DNA of 64,000 bases. Source: Verrucomicrobiota bacterium. Lineage in GTDB: Bacteria; Verrucomicrobiota; Verrucomicrobiia; Limisphaerales; Palsa-1400. Made by a program: the position numbers and the translations under genes. Every line of letters starts with the position of its first letter. Position 1 is the first letter of the stretch. Shown piece after piece: positions 30,107 to 62,545 of the stretch. The stretch is taken from assembly GCA_049510745.1 (NCBI GenBank), contig JBEKYR010000018.1, positions 1 through 64,000 of the forward strand, written 5' to 3'. The notes below the pieces were generated by a model that saw nothing but the letters and a program-made list of their open reading frames with translations, made no database searches and had not been told where the DNA came from.

Positions 30107-32641
30107 ATGCCAATCCACCCGGACGCAGTTGGCTATTTGAACGACTTGGCCAAGGAGGTCAACGAACCTTGGTTTAAGATGGTCTGTGACCTTGCGGCTG
30201 TGAGCGGCGTGTCAATCTTGGACCGGCTGATGCTCGAAACACTCTTTGCCCTATATATCAGAAGGGCGAGCTACATTGGCATCAAGCCTGCCGCCGCCGT
30301 GCCTGCTGCGGCTGCCGCCGCCGCTCCAGCGGACTTTCTCGAGCAGCTTTCGGGCTTCACGAATTTCAAGCTCCTTGGGGACACACTCGAAATTAGTTTC
30401 AAGAAACGAATCACCCTAATTTTTGGAGCGAACAGCAGCGGCAAATCCAGCCTTTGCGAATCGCTGAAGGTTCTCGCGACTCCTGAGCCACCGAACCGGC
30501 CACTCCAGAATGTCCGAGCGGCAGGCGCAGCGACGCCGACGTTCTGTTACAAGTTCAAAAGCGATGCAGCGCAGCAGGCGTGGACGCCTGCCGTTGGCTA
30601 CGGTCCGAGGCGAACGACGGTCAAATACTTCGACACCGCGATTGCGACTAGGAACGTGAAGAACGCGGTTGAACCAGGGCGAGTCATTGTCCTGACCCCA
30701 TTCAGACTTCACGTCTTCGAGTGGGCAAAGTCACTGACAACGAAATTCCGCGAGGCGCTCCAACGGGCGCAACGGGACAACTCGGTAAAGCTGACCCAAG
30801 CGTTGGATGCAATTCGCACGGACTTCGCTAAGTTCAACGGCCGCCCTTTGTCAGTCATCGACGACATAACGGTCGCTGTGCTTCCGGCCCAAATCAAACT
30901 CGGCGAGGGGTTCACAGACCAAAAGCTGCTGAGTCAAAAGCAGGCTGCTGCAGCCGAGATGGAGAAGGCAGCGTCTGAAGAAGGCCTGAAGCTGCTCAGA
31001 GCAGAGCATCGTGAGTTGGAAACCTTTCTGACTTCCCTCAGCACGCTACTTACTTCAGCGGCCGGGCTGTGGGCGCTTGAACCCGCGAGCAAAGAGAAAC
31101 TTCTCGCCAAGAAACAAACAGAGCAGGAACTGCTGGCAAAGGCGCTCATCCCGATAGACGGGACGCTCGACGGCTTGCTAGATCTGCTGCGCGCCGCGTC
31201 GCCACTGTGCAAAATGGACGAGGCAGCGGGTCGTGCGTGCCCGCTCTGCAAACGCGACTTGGGCGTTCCAGAGGTTGAGTTGTTCAAGCAGTATCACGAC
31301 CTGCTCGCCGGCGAGCTGGAGAAGGACATTGCGGCCCTCAAGGGCGACATCGCCAAGGCTCTTGAGATCGCAACCGCTGTCGTCAACGTGGACCGGGAGG
31401 CGTGGGAAAAATTCCCAACCATCCAAGGGGAAGTCCTGACAGCCGCAAAGGCTGGCTCAGACCTCATTGTTGCCAGTTGCGACGTATCCAAAGAGCCGAC
31501 GACTGAGGCAAAAGCCGCGCTTGAATCGCTCAAAATTTCGGCGGCGGCATGGGCAGGACAACTGGAGTCGAAGAAGAATGCCATCGAGGCAGCCGCCAAA
31601 GGGAGACAGGAGTTGGTCAAGCAGTTGGCGAAGCTGCGCGGTGAAATCGAGCCGCGGGAGTATGCGCAAGCCATCGCCGAGAACTTGGAAAAGCTGAGAG
31701 AGGCGCACCGGATGGCGGATGAGTCAAAATTTTGGAGCGCCAAGCTTCCCGCGTTTACACAGGTGCTGAAAAGGATAACGGAGAAAGCAAAGGACGCTCA
31801 CGAGGAGTTGGTTGTAATGGACTTTGAGGCACGGTTGGACACGGAATACAAAGCTCTTGCAGAAAAAAATATGGCGGCATTTGGTGTGATGCTCGCCCGG
31901 AAGGGGACTGATGCCGCTGTGACGGTATTGCCGCAGATAGGCGGCAAGGACATCGAAGGCGTGTTGAGCGAAGGGGAGCAGCGCGTTCACGCCCTCGCGC
32001 TGTTCTTCGCCGAACTGGAAACGTGCCCGCAATCGGTCTTGGTGTTCGACGACCCCGTCTCCAGCTTCGACTATAACTACATCGCGAACTACTGCGCCAG
32101 ATTACGAGACTTCACGCTGAAGCATCCGGTCTGGCAGATTATTGTCCTGACCCACAACTGGGAGTTTTTTGTCCAGCTTCAAACGACACTGAACCAAGCC
32201 GGTCTTGACCCGCATCTGTCAGTCCAAATCCTTGAGAACTGTGCGGTCGTCGCAGATTACAGCGAGAAGATTGACGACTTGAAGAAGAACATCGAAGCCG
32301 TGCTCGCAGCGGCGGGTGAGCCATCGAAAGCAAAGAAGGAGGAGACTGCCGGAAAGATGCGGCGACTGATTGAGGCGGTGGTGAACACGCACGTCTTCAA
32401 TCACCAGCGGCATCAATACAAGCAGAAGAGCCAAGAAATCACGGCGTTTCAAAGCTTCACCAAGATTGTCGCTCTGCTCCCAGCGGAAGCGACCACACTG
32501 CGCGAGCTGTACGCGAAGTTGAGCCCTGTTGAACACGATGATCCCCGAAACTTCTACGTCAATACTGACAAAGCGATGTTCCAGACTCGTTACGACCAGA
32601 TTGTTGCGGTCGAAACTGCAATCAAGGCTCGAATCCCTTAG
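30107..32641 (+). CDS. RloC/AAA_13-like Rad50-type ABC ATPase with zinc hook
   Basis: GANSSGKS Walker A, CPLC hook within coiled coil, LSEGEQ signature, FDDPVSSFD Walker B, LTHN H-loop, and a C-terminal helical domain (MRRLIE...H). Confidence 0.8.
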   Translation: MPIHPDAVGYLNDLAKEVNEPWFKMVCDLAAVSGVSILDRLMLETLFALYIRRASYIGIKPAAAVPAAAAAAAPADFLEQLSGFTNFKLLGDTLEISFKKRITLIFGANSSGKSSLCESLKVLATPEPPNRPLQNVRAAGAATPTFCYKFKSDAAQQAWTPAVGYGPRRTTVKYFDTAIATRNVKNAVEPGRVIVLTPFRLHVFEWAKSLTTKFREALQRAQRDNSVKLTQALDAIRTDFAKFNGRPLSVIDDITVAVLPAQIKLGEGFTDQKLLSQKQAAAAEMEKAASEEGLKLLRAEHRELETFLTSLSTLLTSAAGLWALEPASKEKLLAKKQTEQELLAKALIPIDGTLDGLLDLLRAASPLCKMDEAAGRACPLCKRDLGVPEVELFKQYHDLLAGELEKDIAALKGDIAKALEIATAVVNVDREAWEKFPTIQGEVLTAAKAGSDLIVASCDVSKEPTTEAKAALESLKISAAAWAGQLESKKNAIEAAAKGRQELVKQLAKLRGEIEPREYAQAIAENLEKLREAHRMADESKFWSAKLPAFTQVLKRITEKAKDAHEELVVMDFEARLDTEYKALAEKNMAAFGVMLARKGTDAAVTVLPQIGGKDIEGVLSEGEQRVHALALFFAELETCPQSVLVFDDPVSSFDYNYIANYCARLRDFTLKHPVWQIIVLTHNWEFFVQLQTTLNQAGLDPHLSVQILENCAVVADYSEKIDDLKKNIEAVLAAAGEPSKAKKEETAGKMRRLIEAVVNTHVFNHQRHQYKQKSQEITAFQSFTKIVALLPAEATTLRELYAKLSPVEHDDPRNFYVNTDKAMFQTRYDQIVAVETAIKARIP

Positions 32642-39403: not shown

Positions 39404-39566
39404 GGCGGATGGATTTCGCCCCAGCTTTTCCCGTTTTCCTCGCTCGATGCGGTACAGGCCGGGTTTGCGCACCCCGCCGCCTTGACTTTTTTCACAATCC
39501 ACTGCATTTTCCAGGATGATGACAAGTGGGGTCCCCCTTGTAAGTCCTTTGCACGGAGAGTTTTCA

Positions 39567-40757
39567 ATGGAGAGCCAGACAGTTGCGACAGTTGTTCGTG
39601 AAGAAACCCCCACCGGTTATCTGCCGGCCCGCAGCCCTGCCGCCCCCCCGCCGCCAGTGGTGAAACCGAGGAAGAGTCTCCCAAGGCTTTTGGGCGAAAT
39701 CCTGGCTCACGGCGGGCCGGGTTATTTACAGTTTGCCATCACCAATATCTGCAATGCCAAATGCGATTTCTGCGGATTCGCCGTCGATCGGTTCGATCCC
39801 CGCCGGCGCCGCAGCGTCACCCTCCGGCAGGCGCGCGATGTCATCGACATCTGCGTCAAAAACCACATCGGCTACCTCCTTTTTGTCGGCGGCGAGCCGC
39901 TGGTCCACAGGGAGCTCGGCCAAATGACGCGCTACGCGGCCGAACGAGGCATTCATCCCATGATCTGCACCAACGGCTCCCTCTGGACCCGGCAGAACGT
40001 GCGCGCCCTGGTCGCCGACGGCTTGAGCAGCGTCATCATGTCCATCGACGCCCACGACGTGGCGCGGCACGAGAAAAACCGGGGATTGCCCGATGTTTGC
40101 CGGAAGATACAGCGGGCCAACGCGCTTTTTGCGCAGCTTGGCGTGCAAACCACCGCCAGCGTCACGGCCAGCCGCCTGATTGACCACTATGGGAAACTGC
40201 CCGATTTTCTGCGCGCCCTGGGGTTTGCCAGTTGCACTTTCAGCTATCCGCTGACCAGCCTGGCCTCCAGTTATTTGAGTTTCAGCGATTCCTCGCTCGT
40301 CAGTTACAAGACGGATGAATTGATCGAGGTCTTTGAAAAGATCAAACGGATGAAAGAACGCAGCGGCTACCCCGTGGTCAATCCGCGCGAATCCCTCACG
40401 GAGATGCAACGGCACCTGCGCAAAGAACCGGAGCGCTTTGGCTGCCTGGGCGGCCACAAGTATTTTTACCTCGATTGGAACCTCAATCTCTACCGCTGCC
40501 ACGCCTGGGACAAGCCGATGTGCAACATCTACCAGTTCGACAAGACGAAACTGATCCGGGACGGCTGCACCAAGTGCATGATTGACTGCTACCGGGACCC
40601 GAGCGTCCTGCAATTTGTGGCCGTCAGCGCCAGCGACGCCTTTCAGAACCTGAAGAAGGGCAGGCTGACCGCCGCCGCCAAAAACATCCTGGACTCCCGC
40701 AACCTGGTCTCGCTCCGCGCCGTTTGGGAAAACCGCCACTGGATCGGCAAGGTTTGA
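39567..40757 (+). CDS. Radical SAM protein (loosely HpnH-like)
   Basis: CNAKCDFC, GGEPL and C-terminal C...C...CTKCMIDC auxiliary cluster. Confidence 0.85.
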   Translation: MESQTVATVVREETPTGYLPARSPAAPPPPVVKPRKSLPRLLGEILAHGGPGYLQFAITNICNAKCDFCGFAVDRFDPRRRRSVTLRQARDVIDICVKNHIGYLLFVGGEPLVHRELGQMTRYAAERGIHPMICTNGSLWTRQNVRALVADGLSSVIMSIDAHDVARHEKNRGLPDVCRKIQRANALFAQLGVQTTASVTASRLIDHYGKLPDFLRALGFASCTFSYPLTSLASSYLSFSDSSLVSYKTDELIEVFEKIKRMKERSGYPVVNPRESLTEMQRHLRKEPERFGCLGGHKYFYLDWNLNLYRCHAWDKPMCNIYQFDKTKLIRDGCTKCMIDCYRDPSVLQFVAVSASDAFQNLKKGRLTAAAKNILDSRNLVSLRAVWENRHWIGKV

Positions 40758-44142: not shown

Positions 44143-44472
44143 TCAGGCTGTCTGCAATTTCTCTTTCCGTGGCAGGAAGCGGATTTCAACGCGCTTATTC
44201 ACCGCTGCCGCGATTCGTTTGAGCATCGTAAGAGAGTGCCCTTCGTAATCGGAATCTTCGAGGCGGCTAATCACCGAGGCGGTTGTTCCGATCAACTTGG
44301 CAAGCCGCTCTTGCGTCAAGCCCGCTTGCTCTCTTAGCTCGTAAATCTTCCGTGCAAGCTCATCCTCGGCTCTGGCTTGCTCGAGTTGTGCCGTGCGGTC
44401 TGGTTTGCCGTCATAATAGCGGCGATGCAGAATTTGCACCGCGTTCGATGTTGCGTTTCTCTTTTTTGGCAT
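44143..44472 (-). CDS. XRE-family HTH protein (HigA-like, orphan)
   Basis: LREQAGLTQERLA..IGT..SVISRLE...YEGHSL. Confidence 0.85.
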   Translation of the reverse strand: MPKKRNATSNAVQILHRRYYDGKPDRTAQLEQARAEDELARKIYELREQAGLTQERLAKLIGTTASVISRLEDSDYEGHSLTMLKRIAAAVNKRVEIRFLPRKEKLQTA

Positions 44473-44506
44473 ATTCACTCCTCCAGAATGAAGCTTTGAG
44501 AAAACT

Positions 44507-46821: not shown

Positions 46822-46944
46822 GTAATGCGTCAGTGACGGCGGGCCTGGGAATGGTAGGGTCGCCTCGCCGAGGCGACCACCCGGCAAGAACCACCCTCGG
46901 ACGGCTCGGCGAGCCGTCCCTACCATCCATCACTGACGCATTAC
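46822..46944. mobile_element. MITE with 15-bp TIR and 8-bp target duplication enclosing a REP doublet
   Basis: GTAATGCGTCAGTGA / TCACTGACGCATTAC; GTATTTCG on both flanks; two inverted GTAG-type palindromes inside. Confidence 0.85.
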
Positions 46945-47712
46945 GTATTTCGTAGTTGGCCATCTGCGGGCAGTGGATACCCCCCCTCCCCCTGTTGTTG
47001 TGGGGTTTGATTTAGTCTGATTTAGTCTGATTTAGTTTGATTTTTGGCTTGATTCGGCTTGATGGAAACCTGCTGGAAGGGGCCGGACCGGCAAATTTTG
47101 CCGGTGGAACGCCGGGCCGGATGGCGGGCGACGGGTTGCCGGCGGATCGGCTGGAGCCGAAGCCCGTCCTCCCCCATGTGATGATTACCAGTTTCATCAA
47201 ATGAGGAATTATCACGTTTTTTTGGAATATGCAAGAGCAATCTATCGAAAAGTTGTGAAGTCAGAATCAGTGAATCAGTGAGTGGGGCGATGGAGGCTGG
47301 GAATTGCCACGATAGGGCACAAAAAGAGCGGGCGGGGAGTTGGCCGAAGGGATTGACCGGGAGTTTCTGAATTTCCCGCCGGCCGCTCGATGGTTTTCCG
47401 CCGGTGCTGTCGGAAGGATTGAAAAAACGATTGTTTGAGCCGCCGCCGCGTTCGCTGAAATCAACGAGAAAAGTTAAAAACCGGGCGAGCCTATGGGTGC
47501 CTCCTGCGACAAAAGCGAACCAAACTATGGGTTGATAAACATTTCATTTTGCCTTTATTTCCCTGGTGATTAGGGCGGCGAATTCGATGTCGCGATAAAA
47601 TATGCGATTATGCGGGACTGACCTGTTTTCCGGCAGGTGATGTTTTGTTCGATGAATAACCAGCGATCAAATTTGCAGTCCACACCAACCATTTACATGG
47701 AAAAGACAATGG

Positions 47713-48870
47713 TCAATCGCGGAATGGAGCGATATGGGCGCTGTAGCGGAGTTTGGCCGAGCTAAAAAACCCGCCACATTGACTCCGGCGCGTGCAGCCC
47801 TCGCATTCTGGCATATATTCATTTTTCCAGTCCGAAATGCTCTTGCGGCTGAACTGTGTGAGCGCCGGGTCCAGGACGCACAGTTGATGATTGTATACTG
47901 AAACGGCCATTCTCGCCCGATGGAGCAGTTCGACGGCTTCTCGCAATTGAGGCTGATAATCCTTGGGGTCAATCCAGAGATCATTCAGGTTGATTTTTGT
48001 AAATCCTGTAATCTCAAGCCCCATAAGAGCGACATGGTCGCAAAACGTCAGGTTTCGGCGGATAAAGAGGGCCAAGTCGGGCAGACGTTCGTATGTGGCC
48101 TTGTGAATGACGACGCGGATTTCCACTCGCACGCCCGCGCTTTTCAAGTTGATTATGCCGCGGATAGTGTCATCGAACGCCCCGTCAGCCTGAACAACGT
48201 AGTCGTGAATCGAAGAAATGTCAGAATAAACGGGTGTTCCTATCATGAGGTCCGGGTGCGCAACGGCAGCAAGAGACTTGGCGTAGTTCAAGTCCTTGAA
48301 TTGCCTGCCGTTTGAGAGAATATGGAGCGCCGTCGAAGGGAGATAACTCTTGAAGTGTCGAACAATGTCGATGAGTTTCTGCCCTAGGAGCGTTGGCTCA
48401 CCACCGGTGAGGCCAATTGCTTTGGTCTCAGGAGAAACGAGAGGAATCATCGTCAGAATCTCGTCCGCGAGATAGGAGTCTTCGTTGTCCTTTGGCGGTT
48501 GCGAACACATCAAACAGAAGTTGTTGCATCGCTCGGTTGTAAGGAAGAAGTTATGTGGGGAATTCCTGCGATACAGCGTGCGAAGGCTGTTCCGCTTTTG
48601 ATTGAGTCTTACAATGTCCCCCTCATCCAAGTACGACAACTCCTGCTCCAACAAAAATGAGTTTCTAGGCACGGCTCCGGAAGGCTTTTCAAAGAAGAGG
48701 TAACCCGCAAAACCTGGCGGGATGTTTTCTGGTGCCTTCCGGAAAAGTAGAAATTCATTCGAACGAAGGGGGCGCACAAAATTCGGGTTCACCGTGACCC
48801 TGCGAACGGTCACTTCCGGCTCAGTGACCTGGCTCAGCGGAGAAACGCATGTAGATGACAATTTCAACAT
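47713..48870 (-). CDS. hxsC: His-Xaa-Ser system radical SAM maturase HxsC
   Basis: TERCNNFCLMCSQPP, TGGEPT, SISDWKN and CEGC...CGGFF; cluster context. Confidence 0.92.
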   Translation of the reverse strand: MLKLSSTCVSPLSQVTEPEVTVRRVTVNPNFVRPLRSNEFLLFRKAPENIPPGFAGYLFFEKPSGAVPRNSFLLEQELSYLDEGDIVRLNQKRNSLRTLYRRNSPHNFFLTTERCNNFCLMCSQPPKDNEDSYLADEILTMIPLVSPETKAIGLTGGEPTLLGQKLIDIVRHFKSYLPSTALHILSNGRQFKDLNYAKSLAAVAHPDLMIGTPVYSDISSIHDYVVQADGAFDDTIRGIINLKSAGVRVEIRVVIHKATYERLPDLALFIRRNLTFCDHVALMGLEITGFTKINLNDLWIDPKDYQPQLREAVELLHRARMAVSVYNHQLCVLDPALTQFSRKSISDWKNEYMPECEGCTRRSQCGGFFSSAKLRYSAHIAPFRD

Positions 48871-48874
48871 GACA

Positions 48875-50335
48875 TCACCATCGTACCCAGCCTTCCAGCA
48901 CCCTTCTCGCTTCGGGATCATCCTCCATCTTCTGGATTATGTACCGGAAGACACCCATGTTCTTCGTGCAAAATCCACTGAGGGCTTTGTGCCCGACAAA
49001 ATCGTGTTGCGTGGCATAATGATAGTCGGGGTCGCAACCACAGTATGGTAAGAAGGCGCACTCCTCGCACATAGGAACCGATTCCGCGACAGATTCCTCT
49101 AACGGCGTAAGTAACGCAGGAGAAGTCATCATCTGCTCATAGCTATCTTTAAGCAAGTTCCCCATGCAGAAGATTTTGTCTCCCATCTCCGCCTTCATGC
49201 GAGCCTCGTCAGAAGGATACACTTCACCGTTGTAGTTAAAAATGACCCCTGCTATGCCGATGCCCGCTGGCGATTGGAGGTTCACAAACCCCGTTCCATA
49301 AGGCGTGAGCATTTTCTGAAGAGCCAAAACCGTGTAGTATTCGACAAAGAAAAGCCCCTGCTTGTTGAGTTCAATGATGTAATCGAGGCCGGTGCGATAG
49401 AATGTTTGCCACTCGCGGGCATCGTACTCATCAAAGCACTTAGTCTTTATGGCAAACCCAAAAGGACTCAGACTGCGAAGAAATATGCCCCGGAAATCTT
49501 GCCTCACATACTCATCGACAATGTCGGTTACTCTGGTCAGACTCGCTTTGGTTGTTGTCATCAAAGCATTGACCCGGTACTTCCCCAATGCCTCCCGTGC
49601 CCGCCTTATGCCTTCTATGGTGATCTCGTAACTTTTGTTACCAGCGTTGGGCCTGTTGGTATTGTGGAGATCCTTTGGACCGTCCAAGGAAGTAGAAATC
49701 AACACGTTTTCATCACGACAGAAGTTCAAAATATCATTGTCAAGTACCGAAAGGTTGGTCGCAATCACAAACGCAAGGTTCCGCCGCTCGGTGATGTTGC
49801 GCTTATTTGCAGCAAGGACGATGTGCTTAATTAGCCCAAAATTGAGAAGGGGCTCTCCGCCTTGGAACTCGATCTTGATCGCCGGTGCCGGGCTCTTGAA
49901 AGTGAAGTCGATTGCCTTGTCTGCCATAAGGACAGTCATGTCGAAAGCGGTTCGATCCTCGCTCTGTCTGGAGACTTGGCAGTACTTGCAAGAATGATTG
50001 CACCTCAGGGTGACCACGAACATGTGCAAACCAGTGAAATCCGCAATGCGCTTTCGCTTCGTGCGCGCTTTAAGCGTGACCAAATCCATCGCGACATTGG
50101 AATCGGCGTCCTGAATGAAGTGCTTCGATTTAAGTGAATAGTAGAGCGGAGTATTTTGCGCGAGAGTCTTGTTAACGGTCGCCTCCAACTCAGGCCGCTT
50201 CAATACCTGCCATTCTCCCACCTCATTGACAGCCACATAACGCGTTCCGTCGAGACGAATGAAGCGGAAAGGAAGCAAACGATAGCCTTTTTCTGCTGGC
50301 AAGTAATGCGCTTGCTCTTTGAAAACGGCAGGCAT
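48875..50335 (-). CDS. hxsB: His-Xaa-Ser system radical SAM/SPASM maturase HxsB
   Basis: YRLLPFRF N-terminus, TLRCNHSCKYCQVS, IEFQGGEPLLN, SDEARM and SPASM-like CEEC...C. Confidence 0.93.
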   Translation of the reverse strand: MPAVFKEQAHYLPAEKGYRLLPFRFIRLDGTRYVAVNEVGEWQVLKRPELEATVNKTLAQNTPLYYSLKSKHFIQDADSNVAMDLVTLKARTKRKRIADFTGLHMFVVTLRCNHSCKYCQVSRQSEDRTAFDMTVLMADKAIDFTFKSPAPAIKIEFQGGEPLLNFGLIKHIVLAANKRNITERRNLAFVIATNLSVLDNDILNFCRDENVLISTSLDGPKDLHNTNRPNAGNKSYEITIEGIRRAREALGKYRVNALMTTTKASLTRVTDIVDEYVRQDFRGIFLRSLSPFGFAIKTKCFDEYDAREWQTFYRTGLDYIIELNKQGLFFVEYYTVLALQKMLTPYGTGFVNLQSPAGIGIAGVIFNYNGEVYPSDEARMKAEMGDKIFCMGNLLKDSYEQMMTSPALLTPLEESVAESVPMCEECAFLPYCGCDPDYHYATQHDFVGHKALSGFCTKNMGVFRYIIQKMEDDPEARRVLEGWVRW

Positions 50336-50340
50336 CCCAA

Positions 50341-50667
50341 TCAATCTTCCTCTGCAAGCGATGTGCCGGAGAATGCGTGCGCAAGGATCAAGTTCCTGAG
50401 CGGTCCTGCTTCGCGTCGAATGATCTCACGGAGGTCTTGATCCAAAAGCTCGTTGCAGAAGTCAGAGATGACCTGCTCCGGATTGTTCTTATCGTGTTTG
50501 CCGACGAAATTAAAAATAACCGAGAGAGTCGAGTCCCGGCCCGGATTGATGATGACGGATGTTCTGTCAGCGAACCTGTACGCAGCCTTCTTTATGGCTT
50601 CCATCGAATAGATCGACGTATCCAACGAAAGAACGTATCCCGATGGATCCCGAGAAATCCCATTCAT
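50341..50667 (-). CDS. hxsD: His-Xaa-Ser system protein HxsD
   Basis: IYS..AIKKAAY...F.NELLDQDLRE.I....RNLILA.AFS; lies between precursor and hxsB. Confidence 0.88.
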   Translation of the reverse strand: MNGISRDPSGYVLSLDTSIYSMEAIKKAAYRFADRTSVIINPGRDSTLSVIFNFVGKHDKNNPEQVISDFCNELLDQDLREIIRREAGPLRNLILAHAFSGTSLAEED

Positions 50668-50680
50668 GACCACAACAGGG

Positions 50681-50941
50681 TCAAAGTCCCGAAGAGTGCG
50701 AATCGTGCGAGGAGTGCGAATCGTGCGAAGAGTGTGAATCGTGATCGCGCATACCTGCACTTGCCGCTACAGGAACCGATGGCACAATGACGAATTTTTG
50801 CGGCAGAGTCAATTGTTGGGCAACTGCCGGAGAGGCGTCTGAGCCTTGTGTTGTGAGCGCATTGACTGGAACCGTGTTGAGCAGCGCGGCGCTGGCCACG
50901 GAGAGTGACATCAGAAAGCCGAATTTTGTTTCTCGTTTCAT
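50681..50941 (-). CDS. hxsA: His-Xaa-Ser repeat precursor peptide (short HxsA-type)
   Basis: 86 aa: signal-like N-terminus and C-terminal HDSHSSHDSHSSHDSHSSGL, encoded by three 18-bp repeats at 50690-50743. Confidence 0.9.
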   Translation of the reverse strand: MKRETKFGFLMSLSVASAALLNTVPVNALTTQGSDASPAVAQQLTLPQKFVIVPSVPVAASAGMRDHDSHSSHDSHSSHDSHSSGL

Positions 50942-51183
50942 ATATTTTTCTTAAACCACATCACACAGGCAATTTGCCCATACAATTGCCAATAAAACAC
51001 TTCTTTCAGTGTATAAATCGTAACCAATAAGACAGCGAAGTCAAGGGAAAAATTCAATTATATTTCTCTGGTCTTATGAAGCGAAGCGGGATGATCCCCA
51101 CCCCCGCCACTGATTTGTTTCAGCCGCGGAGGGTTCGGCGTGGCACAGGGAGTGCAGCGGGACGTGCCTGCTGTTTGCGAAAT

Positions 51184-51465
51184 TTATCCCACTCGGACGA
51201 GTTCATTCTCCGTGCGGAGGTGGCGGGTGAACGGCGTGTCGATGTCCAGATCAATCAAATCCACCGAACGGCCGGTCAAATCGCTGACGCGCGCGCCCAT
51301 GCGATAGAAAACCGACGGGGGCAGGCCGGAAACCGCCAAGTCGAGATCGGAAGCGGCATCACCCGACCCTTTGGCAGCGGAGCCAAAGACGTAAATCTCC
51401 CGTGCGCCGGCAGACTTGAGTTCGGCCGCGGCGCGCTTGATTAAAATGTCCGTCTCGGCGCTCAC
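51184..51465 (-). CDS. Minimal nucleotidyltransferase (MNT), orphan
   Basis: YVFGS.A.G....SDLDLAV and VDLIDL. Confidence 0.88.
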   Translation of the reverse strand: MSAETDILIKRAAAELKSAGAREIYVFGSAAKGSGDAASDLDLAVSGLPPSVFYRMGARVSDLTGRSVDLIDLDIDTPFTRHLRTENELVRVG

Positions 51466-51555
51466 GATTACAATTGATTGTGCGTCTTTTGAGTCTGAAA
51501 GTCAAAATATTCCCGTACCCTGAATGTTTCGGATTAGGAGTAGGACTCAATGCTC

Positions 51556-51622
51556 TCAATCTTCCGTAAAAAGATACTCCAGGTCGGACTTTGACAAGTT
51601 GCGGGCGAAGCCCTGTTCGCCG
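51556..51622 (-). repeat. Diverged duplicate of the last 67 bp of the SNF2 gene
   Basis: Matches 51680-51746 with 7 mismatches; encodes ...DLEYLFTED* versus ...DLEYLFAED*. Confidence 0.9.
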
Positions 51623-51679: not shown

Positions 51680-54600
51680 TCAATCTTCGGCGAAGAGATA
51701 CTCCAGGTCGGACTTTGAGAGATTGCGGGCGAAGCCCTGTTCGCCGAGAACGTCGGCGATGGTCTGGGCTTTGCGCTGCTGCAATTCCCAGATTTTTTCC
51801 TCGACCGTCCCCGGAGCGATCAAGCGGTAGGCGTTGACGGTCACGGTCTGGCCAATCCGATGCGAGCGGTCGATGGCTTGCGCCTCGACGGCGGGGTTCC
51901 ACCAGGGATCGTACAAAATCACAGTGCTGGCCGTGGTGAGGTTGAGGCCCGTGCCGGCGGCGCGCAAGCTGAGCAGAAAAACCGCCGGGTCGGGATCGTT
52001 TTGGAACGCTTGCATGACCTGCTGGCGGTCTTTGGTGTCGCCCGTCAGGATATGGGTGCGAATCTGGCGGGCGGCGCATTCCTTCTCCAAGAGCCTGAGC
52101 ATCCGCACAAACTGGCTGAAGAGCAGCACCTTCCGGTTCCCGGCCAGCAACGGCTCGAGCAGTTCAAACAACGTCTCCGTTTTGCCGGAAGCGGCGTCGT
52201 TGCCCACCAGGTCGGGATGACAGCAAATCTGGCGCAGGCGGGTCAAAGCGGCCAGGACGTGGATGGTGCTGGCGCGGACGCCGCGCTCGGCGACGGTGTT
52301 CATGACCTGTTCGCGGCTGCGGCGCAATTCGGCCAGGTAGAGCTTGCGTTGGGCCTCGCCCAGTTCGCAATCGCGCCGCAGCTCGATGCGGTCGGGCAGG
52401 TCCTGGGCCACTTCGCTTTTGAGGCGGCGCAACATGAGGGGGCGGAGTTTGGCGGCCAGACGGCGGCAGGCGATGCGTTGCTCGTCGCCCGCGTTTTCGC
52501 CGCGCGGTTCGTATTTTTCGCGGAACTTGGCCTGGGTGCCCAGGTAGCCGGGCTGGACGAAATCGACGATGCTCCAGAGGTCGAGCAGGCGATTCTCCAG
52601 CGGGGTGCCCGTCAGCGCCAAACGCTGGCCGGCCTGGAGTTGTTTGACCGAGACGCTGATCTGGGCGTCGGGATTTTTGATGAACTGCGCCTCGTCGAGG
52701 ATGACGACGCGAAAGTGAAATCGTTGCAGGGCCTCGAGGTCGCGCCGCAACAAGGCGTAATTGGTGACGATCAAGTCGTGTTCGGGGATTTGTCTGCGCA
52801 AATTGTGCCGCGCGGCCCCGCTCTCCAGCACCAGCACTTTGAGCATGGGCGTGAACCGGCTGGCTTCCCGCCGCCAATTGTGCAGCACCGAGGCCGGGCA
52901 GATGACCAGAACCGGCTTGCTGTGGCGATTGGCCGCCTTCATCCACGCCACCCAGAGCAACGCTTGCAGCGTCTTGCCCAGCCCCATGTCATCGGCCAGA
53001 ATTCCGCCCAATTTGTGCCGGGTCAGGTGGCACAGGAAATTGAAACCGGCCCGCTGATACGGCCGCAGCTCGGCGTTAATGCCTTCGGGCAGAGGCGTCA
53101 CCGGAATGCCGCTGAATTCGGCCAGATGGCGGCGCAGGGCCTGCCCTTCAGGCGAGTCGCCGAACCGCTTGAGTCCTTCTTCGTCAAGATGGGCCGCTTG
53201 TTCCAGGCCCAAGCGTTGCGGCACCGGGATCAGGCCATCGACGCCCAGATCGGCGAAGGTTTCGTGCGCCTCTTGCACGGCGGCGGCGTCCAATTGCAGC
53301 CAGCCGGCATCGGGCAATTTGACAAACCGCCCCGTGGCCGTCGCCAGCCGCTGCAAATCCGCCGCGGTCAACTTGACGCCCTCGGCTTCCCATTGGGCGG
53401 AAACCGAAAACCAGTCGATGCCGCTGCCCTGCAGGACCAGGCGCGGACGCAACGGGCGCGGCGCAAGGAACAAGCGATGAAAGGCCGGGTTGCCCAGGAA
53501 CTCGGCCTCCTCGGGGCGGTCGGGCCAGACGGCCGCCAATTGGGCCGGAAAATTGTCATTGGCGTCACCGACCCACACGCCGGGTTCAGGCGTAAACCAG
53601 TCCAGGCGGTGCAACCATTGCACCGCGCGCTCCAGCCGCGGATCATCCAGAATTCTCGGCCTGCCCTTCATATCGACCTGCGGATCGTCGCATTCCCACT
53701 CCTGCCCGGTCCAATGCCAGGCGCCGCCGTCGCCGTCCGCCCGCGCCTGCAGGCGCAAGCGCACCACGTCATCGACCAACTCGAAAACGAAGCGCGGCTG
53801 GGCGGTGTGGACGACACATAATTGGTCCCAATCCACCGCCGGCGCGACCTGGGTCTTGCGCAATTGGGTCAAGAGACGATGGCTCAATCTGCTGACCGGC
53901 AGCGTCTGTCTTTTCACCCACGAGTTGAGCAACTCGTCCGGGGGCGCGCTGCGCAACAAATAAAAAGTGCTCCCCACCAGCGCGATCGCCGGACGCCCGG
54001 CGAAGAATTTGACCGCGCTGAGCGGATGCCCTTCCCCGCCGGGCAAGGTCAACTGGTGCGTAAAAAACAACTCGGTGTTGATCGTTTGCAGGTGCGGCTT
54101 CAACTCCGTCAAGTGGCCGTCAAAGACAATCGGCTCGCCGCCCTGGGCCATGCGCAGGCGGCCTTTGCCGCCCCAGCGCACCAGCCACTGGAACAACTCC
54201 GTTCCGGTCAAAACAAGCGATTCCCACAACCCCTCCGGATCGGCGTGGTTCTGGGCCAGCCATTGGATGAATTCCCAGTCCTCGGCGGAGAAGAGTTCCT
54301 CCTCGTGCGTGGCGCGCGCGGCCAGATCGGCCACTTCATGGACCGTTCTGAGCTTTTCGCCCGTGCGCTGCCGCGAGACAAAAAAGGCGACCGAAAGCCC
54401 GTGCAAAGCCGAGTCTTCGCTGACCGGCCTGGGTTCGCAGGCCACGCGGATGGCGGCGCGGGGCGCGTCCAGGCGCGCCGGCGAGGAGGGGAAGTGCCAC
54501 TGTTCGAGTTGGCGGACGAACTGCTGGTCTTTCTCCGCCTGCTCGATTTCCGCAAACCGCTTCAAATTGGCGTGGGGCTGCAATTCCGTCGGCAGCGGCC

Positions 54601-61648: not shown

Positions 61649-62545
61649 TTATGCATTTAACCGCGCAATCCACGCAGCGATTTCGTCGTGCCGCTCTTGT
61701 GTCCGAAGCTCCGAAGAACCAACTGGATACTTGTCTAGGATTCCGCTCAGAATCCGAGCCTGCACATCTGGTCTGCTCTGCGAGAGAATCTGGATGAAGC
61801 GCGCGCGTGTTGTTCCAGTGTAGCTGTCTGGATCGATGTCCAGATCGAGATCAAGGTAGAAGTCGCGGTGCTTCTGGTAGCTGAAGTCACAAAGGTAGCC
61901 AGCACTCACGCCGATGTAACGATTTACGACCTTGTTGATTTCCAACTTCGTCAATCCCCGATTGGAATCGGTGCTCGGCTCAATCGTACACCTTGCGGGT
62001 TCGCTCTGGGTGCGTGGAATCATTGGGATTGATTGAACAGAAGGCTCGCTTATTTCGACCGAGGTATCTTGCGCTGAGTTGGCTCCGAGTGGAGAGAGTG
62101 TTTCGGGTAACAGATTTGCAGCCACCGCCTCTGTGGCGACCGGTCGGCAAGCCTCGATGAGTCTCCCGTACTCTTGCTTGCTCTCTTCTTGGAGCCAGTT
62201 GATGTGAAGGAATTGCGCCAGAGAGCCTTTGACGGGGGTGCCGTCGAGTCGCAGGGGAATGAACCGACGCTCCTTGTTCAACGGGTCGCGGAAACGAAAC
62301 GTGTGGCTCTCCAATTGCGCCCACTCAGATCCGAATGCACTCGCCGACATGCAGAGCACAAGAACACGGGAGTGCTCCAACCCTTCCTCGATTTTTGCCG
62401 GAATGCTGTCGCCAGGGCGGATTTCCCAGTCATCGAACCACACGCGCAGGCCGTCCGAACGCAACCGCTCCGCGATAGTGCGAACGATTACCTTGTCCTT
62501 CGAACTGTGGCTCAGGAAAACATCGTACTGGAATTCCGCGGACAC
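61649..62545 (-). CDS. TIR domain fused to an abortive-infection-type N-terminal domain
   Basis: YDVFLSHSSKDK, VWFD and SEWAQLE (catalytic Glu); C-terminal NRYIGV..GYL.DFSY..H..FY..TTR.RF block. Confidence 0.85.
   Translation of the reverse strand: MSAEFQYDVFLSHSSKDKVIVRTIAERLRSDGLRVWFDDWEIRPGDSIPAKIEEGLEHSRVLVLCMSASAFGSEWAQLESHTFRFRDPLNKERRFIPLRLDGTPVKGSLAQFLHINWLQEESKQEYGRLIEACRPVATEAVAANLLPETLSPLGANSAQDTSVEISEPSVQSIPMIPRTQSEPARCTIEPSTDSNRGLTKLEINKVVNRYIGVSAGYLCDFSYQKHRDFYLDLDLDIDPDSYTGTTRARFIQILSQSRPDVQARILSGILDKYPVGSSELRTQERHDEIAAWIARLNA

Follow-up and report, generated by a model that had tools for sequence, protein, structure and literature searches.

What does a His-Xaa-Ser (HXS) operon do when its precursor lacks the features on which the published model of HXS function relies? 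This question is raised by a locus in a 64,000-nucleotide stretch of a Verrucomicrobiota genome (GenBank assembly GCA_049510745.1, contig JBEKYR010000018.1, positions 1 to 64,000), referred to below as the window, in which the genes hxsA, hxsD, hxsB and hxsC occupy positions 47713-50941 of the minus strand. The first-pass annotation of this DNA had described the role of such systems as unresolved. This is outdated, as the E. coli HXS was published as an anti-phage system that delays DNA entry and thereby restricts 110 of 113 phages (Li et al., Nat Commun 2026, PMC13128918), and by analogy the hint at a conflict role in the same annotation gains weight. The HxsA peptide of the window is short and acidic, and it lacks both the anchor to the cell wall and the positive charge on which this model depends. 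Our preferred reading, held with moderate confidence, is a horizontally acquired operon that matures and exports a small His-Ser peptide modified by radical S-adenosylmethionine (SAM) enzymes, and that would serve phage defence at the envelope through some mechanism that is not an arginine-based DNA trap.

The hxs operon and its precursor

By its gene families, the four-gene set is a genuine HXS operon. All four genes are co-oriented and encode the 86-amino-acid precursor HxsA (50681-50941, minus strand; assigned from its open reading frame (ORF), model scores and homologues), which is short, with an HxsA2-like architecture and no C-terminal domain; the 108-amino-acid accessory protein HxsD (50341-50667, minus); HxsB (486 amino acids; 48875-50335, minus), a radical SAM/SPASM-type maturase whose predicted N-terminal domain resembles the PqqD-like recognition element (RRE) of RiPPs (peptides that are ribosomally synthesized and modified after translation); and HxsC (385 amino acids; 47713-48870, minus), the other radical SAM enzyme, which has an auxiliary set of Cys residues at its C-terminus. 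With the chosen ATG starts, which agree with the lengths of homologues, the genes are separated by 13, 5 and 4 nt, in agreement with the tight operon with 4-13 nt spacing described earlier. When compared with the hidden Markov models (HMMs) of NCBIfam, HxsB scored 597.1 bits with TIGR03978 (cut-off 370), HxsC 392.5 bits with TIGR03977 (cut-off 267.9) and HxsD 73.9 bits with TIGR03976 (cut-off 50). HxsD also matched an HxsD cluster of the ESM Atlas (score 0.95), and a protein with tandem HxS repeats is encoded 13 nt from hxsD, as the NCBIfam definition of Hxs has it. The gene identities and the Hxs assignment of the first-pass annotation were thus confirmed, with HxsB, HxsC and HxsD above their cut-offs; neither enzyme fell in an unrelated radical SAM family, the outcome that it had named as speaking against its interpretation.

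HxsA matched all four HxsA models, each time below the cut-off (TIGR03979, 31.2 bits, cut-off 121.65; HxsA2, 20.2 and 48; HxsA3, 22 and 65; HxsA4, 25.4 and 55). A homologue search with HxsA returned seven short homologues. BLASTP against E. coli HxsA gave nothing significant, and the relationship of the two rests on the HMMs and on gene context. A Pfam scan found no domain in HxsA, the peptidoglycan-binding domain being absent, while Klebsiella HxsA matches PF01471. The four ORFs are intact and their catalytic residues invariant. In a profile search of the genome for a second hxs copy, a single HxsB was above the cut-off, and the other HxS runs in six-frame translations resemble non-coding repeat elements.

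Residues 1-28 of HxsA (50858-50941, minus) read as a signal peptide, judging by sequence pattern and hydropathy: a basic n-region is followed by a hydrophobic stretch and by V-x-A at 26-28, the 13-residue hydropathy maximum is 2.08 (1.81 in Klebsiella HxsA), and this tripartite pattern is kept across a 30-sequence alignment. About 15 residues before the first triplet, a hydrophobic leader motif (residues 50-54; 50780-50794, minus) forms a candidate RRE-binding strand. A hydrophobic tripeptide at -21 to -9 from the first triplet was present in 69 of 72 HxsA sequences, against a mean of 16 and a maximum of 28 after shuffling, for a pattern defined after the sequences had been viewed. Its equivalent in E. 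coli HxsA falls inside residues 23-47, which are needed for defence, as are all four genes and each triplet (PMC13128918).

The core (residues 67-84; 50690-50743, minus) consists of six tandem His-Xaa-Ser triplets, the number already counted in the first inspection, and is followed by two residues and the stop codon. The triplets read HDS HSS three times over, so that the middle residue is Asp or Ser and the core has no Arg or Lys. At least three tandem triplets arose in only 8 of 100,000 shuffles of HxsA, which itself has six. The computed net charge of the core is -3.7 at pH 7, -1.1 at pH 6 and +1.9 at pH 5, compared with +3.2 at pH 7 and +5.4 at pH 6 for the Klebsiella core.

These charges bear directly on the published mechanism. 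The E. coli study offered an electrostatic Arg-DNA trap as the likely model (PMC13128918), which one reviewer contested on the ground that the periplasm contains no exposed phage DNA (peer-review file of PMC13128918). Carried over to the window, that mechanism would have protonated histidines binding phage DNA in an acidic periplasm, with the anchor dispensable or provided by another protein. The positive value at pH 5 fits such binding, whereas at pH 7 and pH 6 the core is negative where that of Klebsiella is positive; taken together with the searches for accessory genes in the insertion and the genome, discussed below, we regard this explanation as quite improbable.

The maturation enzymes and a proposed pathway

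Both enzymes carry a CxxxCxxC motif and C-terminal Cys sets, as the first-pass annotation had noted, and these are invariant across 34 HxsB and 51 HxsC sequences. Compared with the proteins of E. coli H6, HxsB is 32% identical and HxsC 36% over 297 columns, and HxsD gave no BLAST match but kept its motif residues. The Cys numbering of the H6 proteins agrees with that of PMC13128918, and the counterparts of the cysteines mutated in E. coli (HxsB C116, C119, C423 and C426; HxsC C119, C122, C356 and C359) are all invariant. Tyr30, Asp76 and Arg80 of HxsD match residues required in E. coli; the Asp and Arg are invariant and the Tyr is conserved in at least 90% of sequences.

The predicted HxsB model has a mean pLDDT (predicted local distance difference test) of 72, with 76-93 over residues 11-80. 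From about residue 23 to 101 it shows three strands and then three helices, which is the topology of an RRE. The top Foldseek match of HxsB was CteB (5WHY, E 8e-16), and its catalytic part aligned with anSME (Z 28.6, root-mean-square deviation 3.5, 350 aligned residues) and ChlB (Z 26.6). As a lead only, an Atlas search placed the N-terminal part near PqqD-bearing clusters (score 0.90); a sequence search of this domain against the PDB gave nothing significant. We infer from the model that HxsB may read the leader through its RRE-like domain, which would complement the HxsC-HxsD core of the E. coli paper, where HxsC was found to bind HxsD (PMC13128918). HxsD itself was considered as an RRE and rejected, because the topology of its model (beta-beta-alpha-beta-beta-alpha-alpha; single-sequence prediction, pLDDT 66) is not RRE-like. 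Foldseek with HxsD found no match at E <= 0.001, the best being Rpb11-like and ACT-like at E >= 0.025.

HxsB and HxsC were described as uncharacterised in 2022 (PMC9062424). By analogy, modification of the HxS triplets by the radical SAM enzymes, as suggested in the first-pass annotation, is the likely chemistry. Its proposed read-out of -2 Da per crosslink is not the established one: the only modification measured in E. coli is a shift of +8.0 Da (C minus 4H) that maps to SHRSS (PMC13128918). Arithmetically, C minus 4H equals one CH2 and three losses of 2H. His-to-Ser links in the modified core are plausible by analogy, and His-C2 crosslinks made by radical SAM enzymes have precedent (PMC11499958).

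We propose the following pathway. HxsA, as its sequence shows, is made as a putative signal peptide, a spacer, a hydrophobic leader motif and six HxS triplets. The RRE-like N-terminal domain of HxsB would then bind the leader motif, as its fold and the conservation of the motif suggest. HxsB and the HxsC-HxsD pair would oxidatively modify His and Ser side chains, probably including His-to-Ser links, and would promote N-terminal processing, as judged from E. coli genetics, where HxsB, HxsC and HxsD are all required for N-terminal cleavage of HxsA (PMC13128918). Export would proceed through the signal peptide of HxsA itself, as in E. coli, where HxsA is processed, modified and exported to the periplasm (PMC13128918). 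Since HxsA would leave in this way, no dedicated transporter would be needed; the absence of protease and transporter genes, recorded in the first inspection, is thus expected, and the four-gene system of E. coli has none either. Finally, the rigidified His-Ser array may act on the phage ejection channel or the inner-membrane interface. An action other than Arg-mediated DNA trapping is proposed because the core has neither Arg or Lys nor a wall anchor.

Related loci, the insertion site and its neighbours

We analysed 85 of 91 related loci (numbered with the prefix L), having excluded four loci of the genome itself, an identical copy from a metagenome and a single distant hit. They were picked by HxsB similarity (mostly 49-78%), include a few near-duplicates, and describe this branch rather than the whole family. 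The hxsA gene lies upstream of hxsD-hxsB in 63 of the 85 loci; no HxsA was called in 18, mostly at contig ends. Sixty of 73 related HxsA proteins are short, ending no more than 30 residues after the triplets, and 13 are long-tailed. Summing the middle residues gives a positive value for 21 of the short proteins, a neutral one for 23 and a negative one for 16; for the long-tailed proteins the corresponding counts are 8, 5 and 0. Only His and Ser are conserved in the triplets of the short form, and charge varies. The tails include peptidoglycan-binding, PEGA, YARHG, ankyrin and Sel1 domains; one locus (L062:538-6993) encodes three HxsA paralogues with differing tails (YARHG, Pro-rich and ankyrin). 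A quick tree of HxsB (67 rows) has seven changes between long-tailed and short forms, at least four of them forced by well-supported branches, and the five-member HxsB clade of the window combines four short acidic precursors with one Sel1-tailed. Among the seven loci from the same phylum, six have a long HxsA and one a short HxsA, in all cases with hxsA upstream of hxsB. The HxsA2 model was passed by 4 of 12 short precursors tested, and not by the closest relatives of the window.

The short precursor could also be a degenerate copy that lost its effector tail in a decaying operon, for which the sub-threshold HMM scores of HxsA, the truncation of a neighbouring HEPN-like gene and the repeat debris at the site could be quoted. 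We consider decay very unlikely, given the four intact ORFs with invariant catalytic residues, the equally short HxsA of most related loci, including three of the four closest HxsB relatives on the tree, and the existence of a curated NCBIfam model for the short form, HxsA2, that related short precursors pass.

A small class I methyltransferase family adjoins eight related operons in either orientation (L018, L019, L040, L068, L078, L079, L082 and L087) and, since the +8 Da shift includes an additional carbon, is a candidate tailoring enzyme. Such an enzyme would also suit a classical diffusible RiPP, antibacterial or signalling, with His-Ser cyclophanes, a product that the leader-core layout, the RRE-like domain, the likeness of HxsB to anSME, CteB and ChlB, and the precedent for His-C2 crosslinks (PMC11499958) would fit as well. 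The operon has, however, no peptidase, exporter or immunity gene, and enzymes of the same clade also act with HxsA proteins whose periplasmic tails are large. With the models of triceptide and cyclophane synthases (YhhB, GrrM/OscB, XyeB and AmcB) HxsB reached 43-69 bits, and 52-69 bits with the cyclophane-synthase models, against cut-offs of 310-450, and the shift measured in E. coli is +8 Da (PMC13128918). On balance, a diffusible RiPP appears unlikely.

In three loci with a short, HxsA2-type precursor (L047, L060 and L072), a membrane-anchored peptidoglycan-binding protein, a TIGR03982 protein and a MauG-like protein are encoded downstream of hxsC, and the anchor may be supplied in trans there. 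SNase, endonuclease I or S1/P1 nucleases, families that are usually secreted, stand beside six loci (L007, L009, L032, L063, L068 and L080; by eye also L010), which would fit interception of DNA outside the cytoplasm. Both observations favour the DNA-binding explanation of the E. coli paper. In the window, on the other hand, the insertion holds no peptidoglycan-binding accessory gene, and tblastn searches of the genome with one methyltransferase, one peptidoglycan-binding protein and one SNase from related loci gave no match.

Further genes recur in these neighbourhoods. Full-length defence genes stand beside some related loci (GajA, IetA/IetS, HEC-05, CBASS E1-E2 and a type IV restriction enzyme). 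The hxs operons of L028, L035, L051 and L069 have carbamoyltransferase, SxtJ-like and GDSL genes as recurrent neighbours. A small, secreted-looking, Cys-containing family directly follows hxsC in L034, L037, L041 and L069; the members scanned had no Pfam or NCBIfam match. The flanking genes of L005, on a contig labelled Bryobacteraceae, resemble Verrucomicrobia prepilin-type cassette genes, and the contig may be mis-binned.

The operon is patchily distributed. None of 60 relatives had an HxsB match at E <= 1e-40; elsewhere in the phylum, 7 of 400 genomes had one, six of them above the cut-off, with many of the genomes being incomplete; 25 pattern matches on viral contigs yielded no confirmed relative. 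In the window, about 4.9 kb separate the flanking transglutaminase-like and SNF2 genes, whereas 8 of 30 family genomes have matches to both on one contig at a distance of 82-376 nt. This empty site supports the horizontal acquisition implied by the island of the first-pass annotation, and it is better evidence of insertion than GC content. In the two genomes from the same genus, SNF2 is followed by different genes, and none of the hxs genes was seen. The claim of a lower-GC island stood in part: the four hxs genes have a GC of 0.50-0.54 against 0.603 for the genome, and a GC at third codon positions of 0.53-0.61 against 0.76-0.82 in the two flanking host genes. The adjacent MNT gene, in contrast, is host-like (0.61), and other 1-kb stretches of the window are equally low, so GC alone is weak evidence of insertion.

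This MNT gene (51184-51465) is an orphan that, with the first codons of a truncated HEPN-like partner, takes up 51166-51530 (minus) and lies outside the operon. The MNT module is 77-93% identical in nucleotides to copies elsewhere in family genomes. By eye, a HEPN-like ORF overlaps the MNT stop in two of three compared copies, the third (L098) being without a partner as well, and the similarity of the window to the module stops at 51166, a few codons into this ORF. On the strength of these module copies and of the partner cut after a few codons, the MNT gene is best described from its sequence as the toxin-antitoxin remnant of a family-native mobile MNT-HEPN-like pair, at an insertion-prone site.

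The first-pass annotation had taken MNT as a hint at metal handling, a use that this remnant does not support. The underlying idea, that the modified peptide with its His, Asp and Ser residues binds Ni, Zn or Cu in the periplasm or after secretion, is more general. Arrays rich in His bind metals, the core region has six His and four Asp within 19 residues, and short HxsA proteins are often neutral or acidic. Yet when 103 downstream and 76 upstream neighbour proteins were searched against Pfam, none belonged to a family of heavy-metal transporters, receptors or metal regulators, and the patchy distribution fits conflict better than nutrition. A metal-binding role is in our estimation rather unlikely.

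The insert contains multi-copy intergenic elements besides the hxs operon. At its right edge, a 67-nt stretch (51556-51622, no strand assigned) duplicates the 3' end of the gene for the SNF2 helicase, with 90% identity to 51680-51746; the two copies are split by a short multi-copy element and are possibly an insertion scar. Stacked multi-copy intergenic elements also occupy 46822-47550; among them are a palindromic unit of 123 nt and a unit of 300 nt with 10-nt tandem repeats, and copies are present on many of the genome's contigs (70-97% identity). No tRNA was found in the window and no integrase ORF was seen in the insertion. A weak sigma-70-like site (51017-51044, minus) lies in an AT-rich gap about 75 nt upstream of hxsA; the promoter and terminator scan was at chance level, with four sigma-70-like sites against 3.2 expected. 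Elsewhere in the window, an 844-amino-acid protein in a lower-GC stretch (30107-32638) matches the PADLOC candidate PDC-S06 over most of its length (E 6e-44) and is a possible second defence gene, and a protein with a TIR-like N-terminus (61652-62545) matches PADLOC PDC-S66. A lone XRE-type helix-turn-helix gene (44143-44478) is type II antitoxin-like, with no adjacent toxin ORF seen. A radical SAM protein (39516-40757) is below every NCBIfam cut-off and, as far as tested, unrelated to the hxs operon.

Proposed defence at the envelope and comparison with known systems

The preferred reading, a peptide for envelope defence against phages, draws on the entire machinery being homologous to a defence system of proven function, on the patchy horizontal distribution, which is typical of defence cargo, and on the conservation of His and Ser but not of charge or tail; in our judgement these make it about an even prospect. 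Several points weigh against it. Foremost among them, HxsA of the window lacks an anchor that E. coli cannot do without, as mutating the peptidoglycan-binding domain there abolished defence (PMC13128918), and tblastn with one stand-alone peptidoglycan-binding protein from a related locus found none in the genome. At 32% and 36% identity to their E. coli counterparts, the enzymes may have diverged in function. As the core is positive at pH 5, electrostatics would be possible in an acidic habitat. The charge split, with 16 of 60 short but none of 13 long HxsA net-negative, hints at two functional classes. Moreover, PADLOC matched 12 of 98 hand-picked and 7 of 73 unselected neighbours against 8 of 50 control window genes, many of the matches being to generic domains, so that these rates do not establish an enrichment in defence genes.

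More tentatively, the modified His-Ser array may itself be the active unit of HXS defence, as a small RiPP-like effector at the envelope requiring neither Arg nor an anchor, with the tails as swappable localisation modules and the DNA-trap model describing just one branch. If so, the 86-amino-acid precursor would be a minimal substrate for studying both the chemistry of HxsB, HxsC and HxsD and the target.

The E. coli study leaves open the chemistry of the +8 Da shift and how HxsA stops DNA entry, and full-length E. coli HxsA was insoluble, which made reconstitution impossible (PMC13128918). A natural HxsA that is 86 amino acids long, anchorless and acidic separates these hypotheses and offers a compact test of the open mechanism. 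Protection, if seen, would mean that basic residues and an anchor are not general requirements; no protection would mean that the same enzymes yield a product of a different function.

The hxs locus itself is not rare. The published census gives 99.7% Pseudomonadota and 99.6% D-B-C-A order (PMC13128918), and probably under-counts short forms, which are the majority among the loci related to the window. The short form is common and catalogued in outline as HxsA2; our literature search found no test of it and no paper naming HxsA2, HxsA3 or HxsA4. The claim of an uncharacterised system in the first-pass annotation thus narrows to the short, acidic, anchorless effector type, which alone appears untested.

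Compared with the E. coli HXS, the window operon has the same four gene families, the same catalytic and auxiliary cysteines and HxsD residues, a signal-like N-terminus, a hydrophobic motif before tandem HxS triplets, and no dedicated protease or transporter. It differs in gene order (A-D-B-C instead of D-B-C-A), in the length of HxsA (86 instead of about 211-214 amino acids), in the lack of a peptidoglycan-binding domain and in its Asp/Ser instead of Arg/Ser triplets. In E. coli HxsA, the signal peptide, the five basic HxS repeats and the peptidoglycan-binding domain are each required (PMC13128918). By its families, the window operon is a member of Hxs; by its HxsA, without an anchor or basic repeats, it is not of the E. 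coli effector type.

With HxsA2 of NCBIfam (NF038296) the window precursor shares the short architecture of signal, leader and HxS repeats, but at 20.2 bits it remains below the cut-off of 48; because its closest relatives also fall below it, we take HxsA to represent an unmodelled sub-branch. An hxs locus on a Nostoc plasmid has the same A-D-B-C order and an HxsB that is 64% identical. As modelled, HxsB shares its fold with CteB, anSME and ChlB, and the HxS triplets recall the three-residue, His-initiated motifs of the His-crosslinking triceptide synthases HtkB and HaaB (PMC11499958). In contrast to CteB, anSME, ChlB and the triceptide maturases, below whose HMM cut-offs HxsB falls far, the Hxs system combines two enzymes with HxsD and acts on a precursor that carries its own putative export signal.

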